The notes under the pieces are model-generated. The model worked only from the letters and a program-made list of their open reading frames with translations, was not told the DNA's origin and did no database searches. The position numbers and the translations under genes are program-made. DNA of 14,433 nt, taken from the IMG/VR virus record IMGVR_UViG_2609459801_000010, one strand, 5' to 3'. Positions within the stretch are counted from its first letter, which is position 1, and every line of letters starts with the position of its first letter. The stretch is from a virus. Taxonomy: Duplodnaviria > Heunggongvirae > Uroviricota > Caudoviricetes. Below are positions 1-10,913 of this stretch, piece by piece.

Positions 1-411
1 CTGATAATGTTCCGCGAACAGAATGCGCTCTGTGGCGGGGAAATACGCCCGCAGGCTTTCCTTGTTGCACCCGTTCCAGCGTCCGGACGGCTTCGCCCAG
101 ATAATATGGTTCAGCACACTGAAGCGTTCACGCATCATGATTTCGATATCAGATGCCAGGCGATGACCACAGAACAGGTAAAGACTTCCGGCAGGTTTCA
201 GCACCCGCCAGAACTGCGCCAGACACTGGTCCAGCCATTTCAGGTAATCATCGTCGCCCTTCCACTGGTTATCCCAGCCCTCAGGCTTCACTTTAAAGTA
301 CGGCGGGTCCGTGACTATCAGGTCAACAGAATTTTCGGGTAACGACCGGATAAATTCCAGGCAGTCGGCGTTGATTAACTCACAACTGGATATTTTTACA
401 GTATTAAGCAT
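1..411 (-). CDS. DNA methyltransferase (amino-MTase, N6-adenine/N4-cytosine class), N-terminal 137 codons; gene continues beyond window start
   Basis: Reverse-strand translation from ATG at 411-409 gives MLNTVKISSCELINADCLEFIRSLPENSVDLIVTDPPYFKVKPEGWDNQWKGDDDYLKWLDQCLAQFWRVLKPAGSLYLFCGH...; the DPPY tetrapeptide is the catalytic motif of amino-methyltransferases. Frame is open to position 1, so it is absent from the ORF track (no stop in window). Confidence 0.8.
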   Translation of the reverse strand, partial: MLNTVKISSCELINADCLEFIRSLPENSVDLIVTDPPYFKVKPEGWDNQWKGDDDYLKWLDQCLAQFWRVLKPAGSLYLFCGHRLASDIEIMMRERFSVLNHIIWAKPSGRWNGCNKESLRAYFPATERILFAEHYQ

Positions 412-545
412 GGATCATTAAGCCTGTCTCTGATAGGCTCATTCTGCTTTTGCGCAAAGCAGTGGGCCTGAGGTTTGCTTGTGAACCCAACGCATGAGCA
501 GATGGCTGGTGGGTGCCCCTAACACCCACCAGCCGCCCATTTACC

Positions 546-574
546 ACAAATAAAAAAGCCTTCACTGCGGAAGG
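546..574 (-). terminator. Putative intrinsic terminator after the small ORF
   Basis: Minus-strand hairpin GCCTTC-cgcagt-GAAGGC (plus 557-574) followed by TTTTTTATTTG; overlaps the last codons and stop of the 562-759 ORF. Confidence 0.5.
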
Positions 575-759
575 CGTCTGTAACAACCGAACTGATAGTC
601 TGCCAGACCCGCCATAACCAGCTGAGTCAGTATTAACTGGCAGCGTTCGCGTGAAAGGTAAGTATTCTGCGCAATCTCCCCGACTGTCGCCGGTTCGGTG
701 ACGCTTAATTCATTAAACACCACTCTGGCGGTTTCTGTCATATCCTGCTGTTTTAGCAT
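562..759 (-). CDS. Small hypothetical protein (65 aa), possible winged-helix regulator
   Basis: ATG at 759-757 preceded by AAGGGA-like SD; product MLKQQDMTETARVVFNELSVTEPATVGEIAQNTYLSRERCQLILTQLVMAGLADYQFGCYRRLPQ. The longer track ORF (to 846) lacks an RBS. Sits between the Q-like terminator and the methylase. Confidence 0.5.
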   Translation of the reverse strand: MLKQQDMTETARVVFNELSVTEPATVGEIAQNTYLSRERCQLILTQLVMAGLADYQFGCYRRLPQ

Positions 760-878
760 GTCTTTTTCCCTTTTCCGGTTAACGTGACACACCAATAACT
801 CTTGTCGAAAAAGCCAGCAAGCTGAAAGACAGGTATTCACCGCCACCAGCGCGTTTACTGTACTGACGCGATTTCAGT

Positions 879-904
879 CATAAAAAACCCGCCAGGCGGC
901 GGGG
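879..904 (-). terminator. tR'-like intrinsic terminator downstream of the Q-like gene
   Basis: Minus strand: CCCGCC-gcct-GGCGGG stem-loop (plus 888-903) immediately followed by TTTTTTAT; about 80 nt downstream of the Q-like stop. Confidence 0.6.
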
Positions 905-952
905 TGTAAAAAATCTTCTAACGTCAGGCATAAAACGCCTATCGTTAGAGCA

Positions 953-980
953 AATTTACCACAGATTCGGGAAAAATCAA
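953..980 (-). promoter_or_regulatory. PR'-like late promoter (-35 TTGATT, 16-nt spacer, extended -10 TGgTAAATT)
   Basis: Minus strand, starting 6 nt after the Q-like stop codon: TTGATT (980-975), TG at -15/-14, TAAATT (958-953). Gives a predicted ~60-70 nt transcript ending at the 879-904 terminator, like the lambda PR'/tR' unit. Confidence 0.45.
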
Positions 981-985
981 CAACA

Positions 986-1807
986 CTATCGCGTTACCCT
1001 CTTTAACTGCCGCTCCGCCCATGCCTCTTCAATGTCAAACCGAACCACCAACGTATCGTAAAAGCGTTTCACTGATTTTTTCCACGTATCAAGCGTGATA
1101 GCACTCGTCACTTTGCGTATGGCATTAAATGCCTCCGTTGATGGTAGTCTTTCACAGCCACGACCACCACAACGCTGGCAGTCTCTGATAACAGGCATAC
1201 CACGTTTTACCGACTCTTCACGATGAATGGCAACACCACGCCCACGGCAGTCTTTACAGGCAGTGGAAATCTCCCCCTTCCCTTTACATTCAGGACAAGA
1301 AACTTTCACCACCTCCCGAATTTTTTTCCATTCTTCCCAGTAAGACGGATACACACCTTTCGTACACTTTGCCCATACTGGCGGCTTGCCATCCGGATAC
1401 TGAACCTTGTTTGTAAAAACTTCGCCTTCAATAAATTTTTCCCCTCGGCAACAGGGGCACTGCTTTTTACTCGCTGCGCTGCGGGCATAATCCTCAAAAG
1501 CGTACGAAGCCATAATGCGCATCACTACCGGTTTTATTTCTGCCGGAAGTTTTCTCAACGCCGCCACACGATCGCACCGACTGAGTGCATAATCTGCCAG
1601 TAATTCTGTTGCCCGCGCCCTGTCATTCATACTGATGCCCATTTTCCCCAGGAACGCAGAAAACCCCATCTCAGCCCGATTCTGTGTCATGCCCTGCGCG
1701 GCCATCACATCAGTGATACTCAGCGCATCTTTCGACGTTGAGGCCGATGCATCAGTCAGGCCGGGGGATTTTGGGGAGTAGTATTTCGGTAAATCTTCCA
1801 GTTTCAT
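986..1807 (-). CDS. Antitermination protein Q-like (273 aa) with three DnaJ-type CxxCxGxG zinc-finger motifs
   Basis: ATG overlaps the rusA stop (ATGA at 1807-1804). Motifs CPECKGKG, CKDCRGRG, CQRCGGRG plus CPCCRGEK. Position directly after rusA and directly before a promoter-terminator unit matches lambdoid Q synteny. Family assignment relies on synteny and memory, not a search. Confidence 0.6.
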   Translation of the reverse strand: MKLEDLPKYYSPKSPGLTDASASTSKDALSITDVMAAQGMTQNRAEMGFSAFLGKMGISMNDRARATELLADYALSRCDRVAALRKLPAEIKPVVMRIMASYAFEDYARSAASKKQCPCCRGEKFIEGEVFTNKVQYPDGKPPVWAKCTKGVYPSYWEEWKKIREVVKVSCPECKGKGEISTACKDCRGRGVAIHREESVKRGMPVIRDCQRCGGRGCERLPSTEAFNAIRKVTSAITLDTWKKSVKRFYDTLVVRFDIEEAWAERQLKRVTR

Positions 1808-2184
1808 TTTTTGACCTGCTCTTCATGCATTATGGGGTAAATCTTCACCCCCAGACGTCCACCAGATACTGGCTGACCACGAACGATATTGATTTCATCA
1901 AACTGCTCATCGTCCATTAGCAACCCCGCATGCGTCAGCGCATCCAGCGGCGCTTTCAGAATATTGTCCAGATCACGGCGGCGCTTATCCGGTGGTTCTG
2001 CAATAATTTTTATTGCCAACCTTCCGGACAGGCTTAATTTCAGCCGCTGCTGGCGAACAATAAGCGCCACTGCCCGGCGATAACGCTCCCCGGCTTTTGA
2101 TACAAAATATGTGCTGCCACGACGACGCCAGTAAGTGTTCACCGTTGGCGGGTAAGGCAAAACAAATTCTATGCGTTCAGTCAT
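1804..2184 (-). CDS. rusA: Crossover junction endodeoxyribonuclease RusA (Holliday junction resolvase), 126 aa
   Basis: Product MTERIEFVLPYPPTVNTYWRRRG...PPDKRRRDLDNILKAPLDALTHAGLLMDDEQF resembles E. coli RusA (LPWPPSNNRYY..., [23 protein letters not shown]...). Start abuts the upstream stop (TAAATG). Confidence 0.9.
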   Translation of the reverse strand: MTERIEFVLPYPPTVNTYWRRRGSTYFVSKAGERYRRAVALIVRQQRLKLSLSGRLAIKIIAEPPDKRRRDLDNILKAPLDALTHAGLLMDDEQFDEINIVRGQPVSGGRLGVKIYPIMHEEQVKK

Positions 2185-3243
2185 TTATGCTTTCCACTTC
2201 AGAACACCCGAATTTCTCGCGTGCATTAAAAAACGAATCAGCAACAACAGCTGGCTGCCGTGTTTTTCTTCAAAATCTTTTACCCCGGCGTGTAGTTCGC
2301 TATGGCATTTACGGCACAGCGGAATAACAAACAAATCATCAGCCTTTGTTCCCATCCCTCCCAGTCCATGACCAATGATGTGATGCGGATCATCTGCCTG
2401 ATTGCCACACGTCATGCATTTCTGCGTTTTTACCCAGCGCGTGTATACAGGCATCTCTTCCCGTTGTGATTTCTGGCGCTGGAGATACTGAGCCGGTGAC
2501 TCGGGATCAACGGCAATGCTGACCACCGTCTTTTCCTGTGGTGGGTTCTGTTGCTGGTGGGCGTGAGGCAGCGGCGCAAGATTTTTTGTGCGCTGTTTCA
2601 GTATGCTGGTGGCGGTCTGCTCTCCCGGTATGATGTCGCTTTCACTGTACACAGAGCGAATTTTTTCCGCACGCAACCCCAGCGAACGACGTAATACCGC
2701 TTCCGGTAGCGCGTCCGCCACCTGATTGCGGACCGCCCACCAGGATAATTCAGCCAGAGATAATTCACGCTCCTGCGTACCGCTTATTGCGTGACCGATG
2801 ACGTCAATCATCCATGCTGACAGGTTTTGATGAGCAAGTTGCCCGAGTGATTCGGATGTCTGGTCACGCAGCTGGTTGTCGCAGTGCCAGCACAACACCA
2901 TTGCGCCGGTACCATAACGGTGAATGACGGTTTCGCTGTGATGATAATCGCCGTGTGGCCACTGGCAGGATTTAATATGGCGCAACAGCCAGTCAGACAA
3001 TGCACCAGCACCACCAGCAGCACGAATCACCCGTGCGTTACTGAAAAACGGCAGCAATGTTTTGTCTTCCACCAGCGGCTGGCGAGCGGCAGGAACGACC
3101 CCGGACGGCAGATTACGCATGCTTTTTGGTTCCGGCTCCACCAGTATTCTGCCGTTATGGAATGCTGACATTGATTCACGGCCTGGCTTAACGATAACCA
3201 GACCGAGTTCCGGTACCAGAACAGATCGAAGTAATACCCGCAC
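2185..3243 (-). CDS. DUF968/YdfU-like nin-region protein (352 aa) with C-terminal HNH-like Cys/His motif
   Basis: GTG start at 3243-3241 preceded by GGAGGTAAT; size and position (just upstream of rusA and Q) match YdfU-type proteins. C-terminus CMTCGNQADDPHHIIGHGLGG...LCRKCH resembles a CxxC...HH...CxxCH HNH signature. Confidence 0.65.
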   Translation of the reverse strand: MRVLLRSVLVPELGLVIVKPGRESMSAFHNGRILVEPEPKSMRNLPSGVVPAARQPLVEDKTLLPFFSNARVIRAAGGAGALSDWLLRHIKSCQWPHGDYHHSETVIHRYGTGAMVLCWHCDNQLRDQTSESLGQLAHQNLSAWMIDVIGHAISGTQERELSLAELSWWAVRNQVADALPEAVLRRSLGLRAEKIRSVYSESDIIPGEQTATSILKQRTKNLAPLPHAHQQQNPPQEKTVVSIAVDPESPAQYLQRQKSQREEMPVYTRWVKTQKCMTCGNQADDPHHIIGHGLGGMGTKADDLFVIPLCRKCHSELHAGVKDFEEKHGSQLLLLIRFLMHARNSGVLKWKA

Positions 3244-3244
3244 A

Positions 3245-3523
3245 TTACCTCCAGATCCGTTGCTGGAATGTGCGGGACGGACGCGCTGGCCGTTCTGAGT
3301 AAGGGAGCCTGACGGAGATTATCCAGTGACGGTAGTCGAGGCTAAGGGCTTTTTTAACCTCGCATCCGCGCCCGCGGTAACACTGAATGAGCCATTCAGC
3401 CTGTTCTTCGGTGCAGGGGTCGTGCTGATACCAGTCAGATTTGAATGCATGAGAACGCCGCCCGTGCCTGCTGGCAGGGGCGGCAGAGTTATCCGAATTG
3501 TAAAATTTGGTATCGTGCGCCAT
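3245..3523 (-). CDS. Hypothetical phage protein (92 aa)
   Basis: ATG at 3523-3521; stop TAA overlaps the GTG start of the downstream gene, suggesting coupling. No recognisable motif; weak SD. Confidence 0.45.
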   Translation of the reverse strand: MAHDTKFYNSDNSAAPASRHGRRSHAFKSDWYQHDPCTEEQAEWLIQCYRGRGCEVKKALSLDYRHWIISVRLPYSERPARPSRTFQQRIWR

Positions 3524-3790
3524 CTGTTTTCTCTGCTGGCGCAGCAGGTGCCAGTTGTTCAGGCTGACGTATGAAGTATAAATAAACTGGCTCCAGTGTA
3601 AAGCCCCACCTTAATGGAATAAAAACCAAACAACAGATTGCTGGGATAAAAATACAACGCTTATTATTAAAAGCGGTTAGATAAATTAAATTTTAATGTT
3701 ATGCAAATCTGCCAGATTAGCATAATATTTCATTTGAAAACCGCTGAAATAACAATCTTATCGGGATTAATCATATTAAGGTGAGTAAAT

Positions 3791-3931: not shown

Positions 3932-6196
3932 TTATACGGAAACTGGCACACGAGCAGGCAATGGATAGTGAGCCCAGTTATTAGCATTTAAAGCTCTTAC
4001 GCCATCAGCATAAACTTGTGTGTTTCCATCTAATGATTTTAAAGTTACTACAATAGTTACAGGTAAAGGCTCCATTAAGGCCGGTTCATTCGCTCTCAAC
4101 GTTGTTTTAGCTTGAAGAGCCCAGTTACCCGAAGTAATTCCTTTATTAAATGCCTTGCGATGAATTTTTACTGGTGACCACTTTCCACCATGCTCAATTT
4201 GAGCTCTCTCATATCCAGATTGACCGTTTTCTCCTTCCATAGGTACTTTTCCTTTTATAGTATTATTCTCAATTAAGCCAAAACTTAGCTCTACGTTCGC
4301 GCGAACATATTCACTGCCGGCATTAGGGTTCAGTGGTGGTGCATATGCAGCAGTAATTACAATCTCACCTTTAAATTTTCCATTTTGAATAAGTGCCGAT
4401 GGTATGGGATAGTTTTCCTTTCTCCACCTCACCCCAGGAACCAAGAATGTTTGGAAAATCAGAGTAAACCTATCATCACTATCATATAAGGTCTCAATAA
4501 CCTCATTAGGAATTCCCGCTCCCAAATAGCGTCTTTCACTTGGCGAGTAATCAGGAGAAGATAATTGAGCGGAATGAATTAATAATGCTTTAATCAATGA
4601 TGGTGAAACATTAAAGTCTGAATTAGTGGCTATTCTCTGCCATGTATGCGCAGCTAAACTTGCCACAATTGGAGCAGCAAAACTAGTACCAAAATTAGAG
4701 CAAAGCCTATTATCTGGCCCTACGACCTTTAAACTGCTTGCTCCTACATTCCAAGGTCTATGAACCCCACCGCCAGCATGGATTATATCTGGCTTTGGAG
4801 TAAATACAGGCCCAGGGCCACGACGAGTATATGGTGTCGGTGTTCCAATTTCACTTAAAGCATCATTAGCTTCCATATGAGAAACTGAACCAACTGTTAG
4901 TGCTCGGACTGACTCTCCAGGAGAGGAAATTAAATCAGCACCTCCAAGCGGATCAGGATTTGGCCATGTACGTATAGGTTCATCTACATAATTACCTGCA
5001 GCAACTACAAACAAAATACCAAATTTATCGCTGAGCCGATCTAACTCCATCGCAAAATCACTAAACATCTGCTCATTACATGGTCCGCCTCCCAAAGATA
5101 AATTCCAGACTTTTATATCTGGTCTTTTATTTACAGCATCTGCTAGCCTCAGAATTAAATCTGATATATAAGATCCATTTTCATCTAAAGCACAAACATC
5201 ATGGATTTTAGATTTTGTATCAGGAATCCATGGATGATTGTCATTTAAAAAATGAGCGCCTGATATCAATGAAGACACCATAGTCCCATGTTCATAACTC
5301 GTATCAGGAGGAATTACGTATGTTTCCCTACTCACTACCCAAGGAGTAATTGTTGCCGCGATGGGGCTTACCCCAGTGTCAAATACAGCAACAATGGGTA
5401 ATTCTTCTGATGGTACGGGAAAGCTATTTGTTTCAATGCCAACAGAATCACTTACACTAACCGGGAATGCTGAATATTTTGGTTCTGGAATTAACGTTCT
5501 TATACCCGGGTAATCAATGAGAATGTCTAATATATATCTATCATTTGGGGATAAATCCATTATCCTTAATAAGGGAAGACCACATTTTGGTCTAATCTCA
5601 TCATATTTAACTCCGTGTTGTTCTAATATAGAAATAACGTTTTCATAGTTGTTGTAAGTTGCATCTTCACCTGTGTACTCAAATAGTCGTACAAGGATGT
5701 TTGATGATTCAAACAAACCATCAGTGCCTCCTGGAACCTTCCTATTCTCATCCCAAGGTTCAATGCGCTCAATCGCGCTTAGGTTAGCCAAAATCGCTTT
5801 AATATTCCGATGTAAAATGACTGACTCTAATACGTCAAAACAGCCGGCATGAGCAGCAACCAACATTTCATCTATTTTGGCATGACCGGCATTTTGCAAT
5901 CCAGCCTCTTGAGCAATTTTGTTCGGCCTATGCGTTTTGGCTATTCCCTGGTCTCTTAATTTGAAAACCAAAGTACCCAAGCTTCCAGGGTACTCTGAAA
6001 GTTTGGATTCTAAATAATGTTTACTGGTTGTTAAATTTCTTACTAGCCCTTGTCTATATTCGGCTGTTACATCAACCAATACCTTTGCCCCACCGCCAGC
6101 GTTTACTATTGCACCCAAGTCACTACTGGAAAAAGGGATTCTTAACATTGGGTTTGTAACTTTTGCGTTACTAAACTGTGTACCCCTTCTGCTCAT
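3932..6196 (-). CDS. Subtilisin-like serine peptidase (peptidase S8 family), 754 aa, no signal peptide; IetS-like
   Basis: Catalytic triad in canonical subtilase order: Asp in VAVFDTGVS, His in YEHGTMVSS, oxyanion Asn in VVAAGNY, Ser in NFGTSFAAPIVAS. Polar N-terminus with no hydrophobic signal sequence. Strong SD (AAGGAG/AGGAG) before the ATG at 6196. About 270 aa N-terminal and 200 aa C-terminal to the catalytic core have no motif I recognise. Confidence 0.85.
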   Translation of the reverse strand: MSRRGTQFSNAKVTNPMLRIPFSSSDLGAIVNAGGGAKVLVDVTAEYRQGLVRNLTTSKHYLESKLSEYPGSLGTLVFKLRDQGIAKTHRPNKIAQEAGLQNAGHAKIDEMLVAAHAGCFDVLESVILHRNIKAILANLSAIERIEPWDENRKVPGGTDGLFESSNILVRLFEYTGEDATYNNYENVISILEQHGVKYDEIRPKCGLPLLRIMDLSPNDRYILDILIDYPGIRTLIPEPKYSAFPVSVSDSVGIETNSFPVPSEELPIVAVFDTGVSPIAATITPWVVSRETYVIPPDTSYEHGTMVSSLISGAHFLNDNHPWIPDTKSKIHDVCALDENGSYISDLILRLADAVNKRPDIKVWNLSLGGGPCNEQMFSDFAMELDRLSDKFGILFVVAAGNYVDEPIRTWPNPDPLGGADLISSPGESVRALTVGSVSHMEANDALSEIGTPTPYTRRGPGPVFTPKPDIIHAGGGVHRPWNVGASSLKVVGPDNRLCSNFGTSFAAPIVASLAAHTWQRIATNSDFNVSPSLIKALLIHSAQLSSPDYSPSERRYLGAGIPNEVIETLYDSDDRFTLIFQTFLVPGVRWRKENYPIPSALIQNGKFKGEIVITAAYAPPLNPNAGSEYVRANVELSFGLIENNTIKGKVPMEGENGQSGYERAQIEHGGKWSPVKIHRKAFNKGITSGNWALQAKTTLRANEPALMEPLPVTIVVTLKSLDGNTQVYADGVRALNANNWAHYPLPARVPVSV

Positions 6197-7325
6197 ATGC
6201 TCCTGACTCCTTCAGAATGTTTGAAATTACTCTTGATGTAAGTTTGTACAAATTAGCAAGAACTCTGATAGAAAATAATTTTTTATCTTTAGAACGTAAC
6301 CAACGAATTTCATCTTCGTAAGTGCTTAAATTTACACCTTCCATAAGCGATTGCGCAAGATACAAACGCCTATACAATTTATGGTGATTTATCACACTTG
6401 CACCTTCAATAACTGCATCCCTACGTGCATCCAAGCTCACCTGTTCAATTATTGCTCCGGATAATCCCTCCGATTTTCTTGATAAATCACTTAAATCTAG
6501 ATCGCTACATATCATATTCTTTAAACGATTTTTCCAAATTAACTCTCTCTGATGTATGTCAGGCAGAGGCATTGGAATTCTGAAGCTAAATCGCCTCCAG
6601 ATTGCAGGATCCAGAAGTTGCTCATGGTTAGTTGAGGCAATAATTACCGTATCCTCTGATGCCGCATCCATATTCTGCAATAGTGAAATGACAACTCGCT
6701 GAAGCTCACCTATATCTCTCTCATTACCTCTTGCTCCAGCTAAAGCATCAAATTCGTCTAAAAAAAGCACTGATGGCCTCTGCATTACATAATCGAAAAC
6801 CTGTCTAAGATTTTTGCTGGTTTGTCCCAATAAACTACTAATCAAAGTATCGCAACGCACTGTAAGAAGTGGAAAATCTAAGCGGGTAGCGATGTACTTA
6901 GATAACATAGTCTTACCTGTTCCTGGCTTTCCATACACGAGCATACGACTCGGCAATGCTGCATCAGCTTTAACAAACTCATCATAACGTTGAACATTAG
7001 TGATAAACTCTTCAACACGGGTACTGATTGCTGCAGGCAGAAAAATCTCTGAACTGTCTAATTTAGGATAACTGACATCAACAGTGTTGAGTCGACTATC
7101 AATATCTACCGGTAATGAGCCCAGAGATATCCCACCTCCAGCCCTTTGAGCTCCTGCCAACGCCTGGGGAGCTCTAAGCAACCTTTCTCTTATCATTCTG
7201 GCTTGCTTGACCTCCCCTTTTTGTTCGAGCTTATCTGCCAGCAACCCAGCATAATTACTAGCCATCGAAGCATTTGCCTTTGTTGCACCTTCAATGATTT
7301 TTAACACTTCTGATAAATAATCCAT
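6171..7325 (-). CDS. AAA+ ATPase (classical AAA clade), 384 aa; IetA-like
   Basis: Walker A LVYGKPGTGKTML, Walker B SVLFLDEFDAL, second region of homology IIASTNHEQLLDPAIWRRFSF. GGGAG SD before the ATG at 7325. 3' end overlaps the peptidase start by 26 nt, implying co-translation. Confidence 0.85.
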   Translation of the reverse strand: MDYLSEVLKIIEGATKANASMASNYAGLLADKLEQKGEVKQARMIRERLLRAPQALAGAQRAGGGISLGSLPVDIDSRLNTVDVSYPKLDSSEIFLPAAISTRVEEFITNVQRYDEFVKADAALPSRMLVYGKPGTGKTMLSKYIATRLDFPLLTVRCDTLISSLLGQTSKNLRQVFDYVMQRPSVLFLDEFDALAGARGNERDIGELQRVVISLLQNMDAASEDTVIIASTNHEQLLDPAIWRRFSFRIPMPLPDIHQRELIWKNRLKNMICSDLDLSDLSRKSEGLSGAIIEQVSLDARRDAVIEGASVINHHKLYRRLYLAQSLMEGVNLSTYEDEIRWLRSKDKKLFSIRVLANLYKLTSRVISNILKESGAYEQKGYTV

Positions 7326-10487: not shown

Positions 10488-10913
10488 TTAGTGCATCACC
10501 ACAGCATTCCCTGCCGGGCCGCCGCGATTCATCTGGTCATACAAAACAACCGCTGACGCAACAAAATCATCGACATCCTTCCCCAGCCGATCCCTCCGTT
10601 CGACGATCTCACGGTAATATTCAGAACTGTGGCTGCGCATACGGGCCACCAGCAAAGGCGGCATCGCCTTTTCGATCGCCGGTAACAGAGCCTGCATTTT
10701 TTCAACAGCATCAGGGGTGTCTTTATCCAGCCAACGGAAAATTTTCTGGGTATTACGGGCCAGGGCTTCCGGATGGCTGTCGTCATACAGTTCCGGGAAC
10801 GTCATTCCCAGCTCGAAATACGCTTTGGTAATTTTCGCAGCCGGCACTTTTTCGCCGTCCGGATGCGCCCAGACATTCATCGCCATGCGGATGTGTTCAT
10901 GCTTGATTTTCAT
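10488..10913 (-). CDS. YdaT-like protein (141 aa), likely CII-type regulator
   Basis: ATG at 10913 with AGGAG SD; begins MKIKHEHI; lies between the cro-like and replication genes as in the Rac ydaS-ydaT-ydaU-ydaV arrangement. Assigned from synteny and memory. Confidence 0.55.
   Translation of the reverse strand: MKIKHEHIRMAMNVWAHPDGEKVPAAKITKAYFELGMTFPELYDDSHPEALARNTQKIFRWLDKDTPDAVEKMQALLPAIEKAMPPLLVARMRSHSSEYYREIVERRDRLGKDVDDFVASAVVLYDQMNRGGPAGNAVVMH

Follow-up and report, generated by a model that had tools for sequence, protein, structure and literature searches.

An M.EcoGII-type adenine methyltransferase gene behind a predicted Q-dependent late promoter in a lambdoid Escherichia coli prophage

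The start of the IMG/VR virus record IMGVR_UViG_2609459801_000010 (Caudoviricetes), a stretch of 14,433 nucleotides that we refer to in its whole length as the window, carries the gene of a Q-type antiterminator, a short open reading frame (ORF) and the 5′ part of a DNA methyltransferase gene. We find that this methylase belongs to a known enzyme family, that of M.EcoGII, and that it stands behind a λ-type late promoter and terminator, a position downstream of Q that is conserved in many genera. Judging from this position and from the terminators, the methylase is probably a Q-dependent late gene. The stretch is best explained as the start of the late operon of a lambdoid (λ-like) E. coli prophage, an stx-less relative of the Shiga toxin (Stx) phages. 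All genes within positions 1-3600 lie on the minus strand, and the elements listed in an initial annotation of this DNA were all located on that strand where it had placed them. In the order of transcription, the features concerned are:

986-1807, minus strand: Q antiterminator gene, 273 aa (PF03589, PDB 7UBM, phrog_127 'Q-like')
953-980, minus strand: late promoter pR′, read from the sequence, collinear with λ pR′ and recurring in other genera
941-946, minus strand: -10-like pause-inducing element AACGAT, the same as λ pR′ +1 to +6; predicted start at 946
882-903, minus strand: intrinsic terminator tR′, CCCGCC-GCCT-GGCGGG (903-888) followed by T6 (887-882)
785-821, minus strand: conserved non-coding block CTTGCTG-N12-GAGTTAYNTGTRTGTCA upstream of the small ORF, identified from alignments
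562-759, minus strand: 65-aa stand-alone winged-helix protein (WP_000917767; phrog_331; annotated in RefSeq)
552-575, minus strand: second hairpin (575-558) and T-run; the loop holds the small-ORF stop codon
412-551, minus strand: structured 5′ leader of the methylase gene (conservation, compensatory changes, z = -3.3)
1-411, minus strand: DPPY amino-methyltransferase (PF01555), first 137 of 349 codons, with the ATG at 411, cut by the window edge

The gap between Q and the 65-aa ORF measures 226 nt, and that between the 65-aa ORF and the methylase gene 150 nt.

A λ-type late switch ahead of an M.EcoGII-type methylase

The 986-1807 product is a homologue of the λ Q family. It matches Pfam PF03589 with E = 9e-51 (170 bits, cut-off 26.7) as well as phrog_127, and its residues 1-113 and 183-273 align, as separate blocks, with λ Q (PDB 7UBM; E = 2e-38). 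These matches extend over both halves of the protein and bear out the Q-like gene of the initial annotation. Compared with λ Q, the window protein has an insertion of ~69 aa (residues 114-182; window 1264-1468) that bears two extra CxxCxG-type zinc-finger motifs, CPCCRGEK and CPECKGKG. The total of four such motifs, in a DnaJ-like arrangement, predicts two zinc centres.

Directly after the Q stop codon, the -35 element TTGATT (980-975) and the extended -10 element TGgTAAATT (961-953) are separated by a spacer of 16 nt. The full order in the window is TTGATT, 16 nt, TGgTAAATT, TGCTCT, AACGAT, as compared with TTGACT, 17 nt, TAAATT, TGACTC, AACGAT in λ pR′, where AACGAT begins at the start of the 6S RNA. 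The exact pattern TAAATT-N6-AACGAT has a single occurrence, at pR′; with one mismatch allowed, 2 matches are found in the window versus 0.13 expected. A generic σ70 scan of positions 1-2300 called no promoter on either strand, pR′ scoring 8/12 at a threshold of 9/12, so that its identification rests on λ homology and conservation. The same layout recurs behind Qλ-type genes of Escherichia albertii, Pseudocitrobacter, Xenorhabdus, Mangrovibacter, Phytobacter, Buttiauxella, Kosakonia and Providencia: a -35 element, a spacer of 16-17 nt (19 nt in the pattern search where an alternative -35 was matched, as in the window and its near-identical relatives), a TAnnnT -10 element, 5-7 nt, the pause element, and a terminator some tens of nucleotides further on. 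Across 11 related loci matched by pattern, λ and two related phages, the pause element reads AACGAT, AATGAT or AATAAT and is followed by GGG or a near variant (AGG in the window, GGA in locus L081).

The terminator tR′ has a 6-bp all-GC stem, a 4-nt loop and a U6 tract. Transcription from the predicted +1 at 946 to tR′ would give a short RNA of ~64 nt, with two predicted hairpins (-23.1 kcal/mol; z = -3.75). A promoter with an extended -10 and a strong terminator 65-70 nt downstream had been proposed from the sequence; both are present, at a distance of ~64 nt when counted from the predicted +1. The tR′ hairpin is common to phages with different Q genes. BLAST homology has break-points at ~880 and ~903, where matches to other phages start or stop, so that the hairpin (880-903) appears as a mosaic joint between two independently assorting modules, Q/pR′ and the small ORF/methylase cassette.

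With the λ Q-pR′-6S RNA-tR′ unit, the window shares the -10 TAAATT, AACGAT at the same spacing, a terminator, and late genes downstream on the same strand. It differs in the length of the short RNA (~64 nt versus 194 nt), in the extended -10 and 16-nt spacer of its promoter, and in the sequence of this spacer, which in λ is the place of the Q binding element (QBE). Constitutive short transcripts that end at the first terminator of a Q-controlled late unit, as predicted here, are also made by Gifsy-1 (IsrK) and by Stx phages (StxS); both RNAs acquired a regulatory function, and neither has sequence homology to the 64-nt RNA. In 933W/Sakai the pR′-tR′ unit yields the 258-nt StxS RNA and, per the cited literature, goes with the Q933 allele; it is not homologous to the λ-type unit of the window.

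M.EcoGII is widely used as a tool enzyme; we know of no work that has established how it is controlled in its native phage or what benefit the phage derives from it. The part of the methylase encoded in the window matches PF01555 (E = 1.8e-17) and contains DPPY, in agreement with the amino-methyltransferase proposed earlier. For the full-length protein we turned to the E. coli chromosome NZ_CP135649, one of two chromosomes that are 100% identical to a 3.6-kb segment of the window. This protein has 349 aa and is identical to M.EcoGII at 331/350 positions (~95%), with the M.EcoGII reference sequence taken from Table S1 of PMC11551740. The 137 residues within the window match M.EcoGII at all positions but one; there, the table prints H for M.EcoGII and for every ancestral sequence, while the window protein has I, and the mismatch is likely to be a text-extraction error in the table. 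Both enzymes have the same order of an N-terminal DPPY, a central target recognition domain and a C-terminal FxGxG; in the window methylase, DPPY (motif IV) lies at residues 35-38, within the window, and FMGSGS (motif I) at residues 310-315 of the full-length protein. Related solved structures include the beta-class enzymes RsrI and CcrM, as well as MboIIA and PvuII. By sequence, the methylase is thus a beta-class N6-adenine DNA methyltransferase and an orthologue of M.EcoGII. Its activity and specificity are predictions; ~5% of the residues differ from M.EcoGII, some of them perhaps through text-extraction errors.

M.EcoGII methylates adenine in any sequence context and is encoded on a prophage (PMC5778455). 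It is silent in lysogens and under normal growth, and deleterious when made constitutively; that it is switched on at prophage excision was only surmised (PMC5778455). The non-specific beta-class enzymes M.EcoGII and M.EcoGI of E. coli O104:H4 prophages have the same length of 349 aa as the window methylase and are prophage-borne like it, and phage 1720a-02 was named as the carrier of a very similar methylase (PMC5778455). The published M.EcoGII work does not describe an upstream Q gene, terminators, the small ORF or the leader.

The methylase cassette across Enterobacterales

We surveyed one genome per species in the Enterobacterales, which gave 78 usable methylase loci. The small ORF is directly upstream of the methylase gene in 62 of these and missing from the other 16; most enteric genera have 147-154 nt between the two genes, Providencia and Proteus ~142 nt, Photorhabdus and Xenorhabdus ~100 nt. 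A recognizable Q gene lies at most 5 kb upstream in 68/78 loci (Q21/phiP27 type in 35, Q82 in 15, Qλ in 12, DUF1133 in 6), and four remaining loci have a phrog_753 'Q-like' protein that belongs to no Pfam family, giving five Q-like families in all. Holin or lysozyme genes are found downstream in most of the loci. Nearly all 62 ORF-bearing loci have a canonical intrinsic terminator 75-130 nt ahead of the small ORF, and several loci without the ORF have a terminator directly before the methylase leader. This pattern of Q followed by a terminator is expected if only terminator-resistant, Q-modified polymerase reaches the methylase gene. The Kosakonia locus L020 is the clearest instance: it consists of Q, a λ-type pR′ with AACGAT, tR′, leader and methylase, with no gene or promoter-like block in between, so that read-through of tR′ is the only evident route to methylase expression there.

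The phrog_753-type proteins have 199-235 aa (MTPRQRR...APRKSWLGK) and are encoded at L031 3040-3666, L032 2716-3315, L046 3751-4458 and L055 2129-2818. In L031, L032 and L055 they hold the Q position after a DUF968 gene. The PHROGs match was obtained for the two proteins scanned, those of L031 and L046. If this assignment is correct, they would be a fifth antiterminator-like family before the methylase cassette.

We infer the following course of events. The promoter pR′ would fire constitutively, and RNA polymerase would pause at the -10-like AACGAT; without Q, transcription would end at tR′ with release of the ~64-nt RNA. After induction, Q (986-1807) would load onto the paused polymerase and render it terminator-resistant. 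The modified polymerase would then read through tR′, the winged-helix gene, the second hairpin and T-run, and the leader into the methylase gene, and go on to transcribe three tRNA genes, a cargo region and the genes for lysis and morphogenesis. For stx it is established, as a general principle, that pR′ and Q control the genes located between Q and S as late genes (PMC7547250, PMC6266700). The methylase would accordingly be made only late in lytic growth and would methylate adenines of the replicating phage DNA before packaging, which would give broad protection from restriction in the next host, whereas in the lysogen the stacked terminators would keep the harmful enzyme silent. Q-controlled methylation in the service of anti-restriction or self-marking, as the initial annotation had suggested, is plausible by analogy and fits the published properties of M.EcoGII (PMC5778455).

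Several observations weigh against this interpretation. A QBE was not recognizable by sequence in the -35/-10 spacer, which has only a GAAT/GAAAA-TGG motif in common with λ and its relatives. In some loci the cassette lies 1-2.8 kb from Q with intervening genes, some of which are on the opposite strand in Buttiauxella L013. In the open-access literature we found no paper that links the M.EcoGII family to Q, pR′ or late promoters. The source prophage may be defective, in which case the unit may never fire productively in this strain. Finally, tR′ and the small ORF are separated by the 821-785 block, which is strongly conserved and promoter-like in layout and could be a promoter in its own right.

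If it were, the small ORF, with or without the methylase gene, might be an autonomous 'moron', insulated by the 903-882 terminator, transcribed independently of Q from its own promoter in 821-785, and perhaps autoregulated by the winged-helix protein. The block consists of CTTGCTG, ~12 nt and GAGTTAYNTG, i.e. two conserved segments and a spacer of variable sequence and fixed length, as in a promoter. Loci from Escherichia to Proteus have it ahead of the small ORF, always just downstream of the terminator; in E. coli, where the small ORF is followed by a hairpin and T-run, this gives a classic promoter-gene-terminator layout, and the remote position of the cassette in some loci points in the same direction. 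However, the block is not a canonical σ70 promoter: its best -10 candidate, TAYNTG, is poor and lacks the critical final T, its -35 matches at 3/6 positions, and the scan called no promoter. Moreover, where the small ORF is missing, so is the block, while terminator, leader and methylase are retained; the block thus cannot be the methylase promoter in these loci. M.EcoGII, in addition, was reported to be unexpressed in lysogens (PMC5778455). We consider an autonomous unit unlikely. Compared by eye with consensus sequences, the block did not fit a σ54, σE, LexA, DnaA, IHF, RfaH ops or boxA site, and it appears to be undescribed.

The winged-helix ORF and the methylase leader

The AlphaFold model of the 65-aa protein (pLDDT 90.3) has helices at residues 4-16, 26-33 and 37-49 and strands at 53-56 and 59-62, a winged-helix fold of three helices and a beta-hairpin wing. 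Foldseek aligned this model with the winged helices of IclR (N-terminal domain) and MarR proteins, with TM values of up to 0.82, those for the IclR domains being 0.8-0.82, and also with the winged-helix dimerization domains of O-methyltransferases, the Foldseek E-values being marginal. Together with the hairpin 575-558 and its T-run, the modelled fold agrees with the putative DNA-binding protein with its own terminator that had been proposed, DNA binding remaining putative. Among the 120 matches listed, homologues of the protein come from Enterobacterales only and are 80-100% identical. The RefSeq name 'TrmB family' was rejected, as PF01978 scores 18.1 bits, below its gathering cut-off of 25.6. 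The second hairpin is terminator-like in E. coli and has a weaker U-tract in other genera; its arms vary between genera, with pairing still possible.

A methylase gene directly preceded by that of a small DNA-binding protein resembles operons under controller (C) protein control, and the related solved structures include the restriction-modification methylases RsrI, MboIIA and PvuII. The cassette could hence be read as the modification half of a restriction-modification system with the winged-helix protein as its C protein. We give this almost no credence. Neither the source genome nor any of the annotated or gene-called relatives examined has an endonuclease gene next to the methylase gene, whose neighbours are Q, tRNA, toxin or lysis genes, and with no nuclease gene present in the genomes examined a C protein-controlled system is effectively refuted by gene content. 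M.EcoGII, furthermore, is an orphan enzyme without sequence specificity (PMC5778455), and the small ORF is missing from 16/78 loci. Because of these ORF-less loci, and because M.EcoGII is active when cloned alone, the 65-aa ORF is dispensable for the methylase cassette.

The leader proved to be more conserved than the genes around it. Over 32 loci, the 134 nt before the methylase ATG have a mean nucleotide identity to the window of 78.7%, as compared with 74.7% for the first 411 nt of the methylase coding sequence and 68.6% for the small ORF. A 12-bp hairpin (534-504), which includes a Chi octamer, keeps its pairing through compensatory changes in Providencia and Proteus; for the helices P3 to P6 and an alternative long-range P1, hardly any informative variation is available. 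In several Xenorhabdus loci the leader hairpin is followed by a U-run and is terminator-like. No canonical Shine-Dalgarno sequence was found ahead of the methylase ATG. In IMG/VR, a 19-mer of the leader occurs in at least 120 contigs; 81 matches were examined, and in 72 of these the distance from the first base of the 19-mer to the methylase ATG is 129-132 nt. Searches of Rfam at permissive thresholds gave no credible match for the short RNA, the 821-785 block or the leader: the best hit was P26, on the opposite strand, at 24 bits versus a gathering threshold of 36, and a match to isrK covered the terminator only and was non-significant (E = 6).

Two other explanations for the conservation of the leader were discarded. 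An invariant ATG opens a potential leader peptide, MGGWWVL-stop, in most enteric bacteria, of which neither frame nor length is kept in the window or in Providencia. Chi is not the cause either, as the octamer is lost in most Providencia and Proteus while the hairpin is retained by compensatory changes. The leader seems to be undescribed and may, to judge by its conservation, be a new cis-regulatory RNA. In its fullest form, this idea would have the leader gate a promiscuous, self-toxic DNA/RNA adenine methylase, perhaps with the winged-helix protein as trans-acting partner or as methylase modulator. We advance it tentatively and think it rather doubtful; it draws on the higher conservation of leader than coding sequence, the compensatory changes in the hairpin and the start codon without Shine-Dalgarno sequence. 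The leader could be a further checkpoint, at the level of termination or of translation, to be passed only by Q-modified polymerase or with the help of a late phage factor.

Some further features of this region were recorded. The Chi octamer GCTGGTGG occurs eight times in the window versus 0.46 expected, seven times within 505-3076, both arms of the leader hairpin included, and once more at 10646. In four IMG/VR contigs (L099, L133, L152 and L173) cassette homology ends directly after GCTGGTGGGTG, which suggests Chi-associated mosaic junctions. In another IMG/VR contig (L114, 2145-2560), an internal deletion has left of the methylase gene only the last ~67 codons, fused to the leader, so that the enzyme is lost and the leader kept. 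A GATC (Dam) site at 413-416 on the minus strand, directly before the methylase ATG in the motif TGATCnATG, is kept in nearly all aligned loci.

Late genes beyond the window and implications

The initial annotation had held that Q is followed by the small ORF and the methylase gene rather than by lysis genes, and had named extension of the sequence beyond position 1 as a check. The claim about the lysis genes is not supported: the window ends inside the methylase gene, and in NZ_CP135649 holin, lysozyme and Rz-type genes do follow. The methylase gene is succeeded there, on the same strand, by genes for tRNA-Ile and two tRNA-Arg, a small pseudogene fragment, a SASA-family esterase (nanS-p type), a class II holin, YdfR, a lysozyme and an Rz-type lysis protein, and then by terminase, capsid and portal genes. 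The holin gene starts 4.3 kb past the methylase ATG, which places the lysis genes ~4 kb past the window edge. In λ, by comparison, the lysis genes S and R come ~400 nt after tR′, whereas ~4.7 kb of cargo intervenes in the window prophage. In Salmonella and Klebsiella relatives the lysis cassette follows the methylase gene directly or almost directly.

Stx phages have the same kind of late region. In Stx2_EH1910, phiP27 and 1720a-02, the small ORF, the methylase gene and ileZ/arg tRNA genes lie between Q and the lysis genes, with 91-97% nucleotide identity; the window prophage differs from them in having no stx genes and a pseudogene fragment in that position. Stx2_EH1910, an Stx2a phage, shares Q, small ORF and methylase with the window at 93% identity and has stx2AB inserted behind its tRNA genes. 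In phiP27, Stx2_EH2201 and 1720a-02, the cassette stands behind a different Q of 126 aa, the order in 1720a-02 being Q, a hypothetical gene, methylase and stx2. Phage vB_EcoS-640R1 has the same Q, pR′ and tR′, followed directly by tRNA and lysis genes. The architecture is ordinary and already annotated; public phage records have shown this gene order since phiP27.

In the source chromosome (L003), the pseudogene fragment at 18633-18758 occupies the place where related Stx phages carry stx, and the portal gene (30201-31600) is annotated as frameshifted, so that the prophage may be defective. Both features would suit a decaying remnant in which Q, promoter and methylase are no longer used in this strain. 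Against such decay, Q, small ORF and methylase gene are full-length and intact in the source chromosome, and at least 80% of the 3.6-kb segment is found in 1048 of 5426 complete E. coli genomes. The higher conservation of leader than coding sequence across genera likewise indicates that the whole module is still under purifying selection, and we regard a remnant as quite improbable.

Within positions 1-3600, Q is preceded by three further genes:

first in transcription order, minus strand: 92-aa ORF
3243-2185, minus strand: DUF968/HNH protein, after the 92-aa ORF
2184-1804, minus strand: RusA (Pfam PF05866)

Further upstream (3932-7325, minus strand), genes for a 754-aa S8 peptidase and a 384-aa ATPase, by their RefSeq names the anti-phage pair IteS/IteA, are inserted between the prophage replication genes and the DUF968/RusA/Q block.

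For genome annotation, this means that a lysis cassette which seems to be 'missing' at a window edge is no sign of an unusual late operon. What the present analysis adds to an otherwise familiar gene order is an explicit connection of the M.EcoGII family with the Q switch, backed by comparison of loci, and two conserved non-coding elements, the 821-785 block and the methylase leader. The placement of the family as the first cargo behind a Q/pR′/tR′ switch, with five Q-like families, a terminator and a structured leader, would offer a simple explanation for the silence of the enzyme in lysogens. Collectively, this pattern suggests that a toxic methylase of general anti-restriction use is expressed late and under tight gating by Q.

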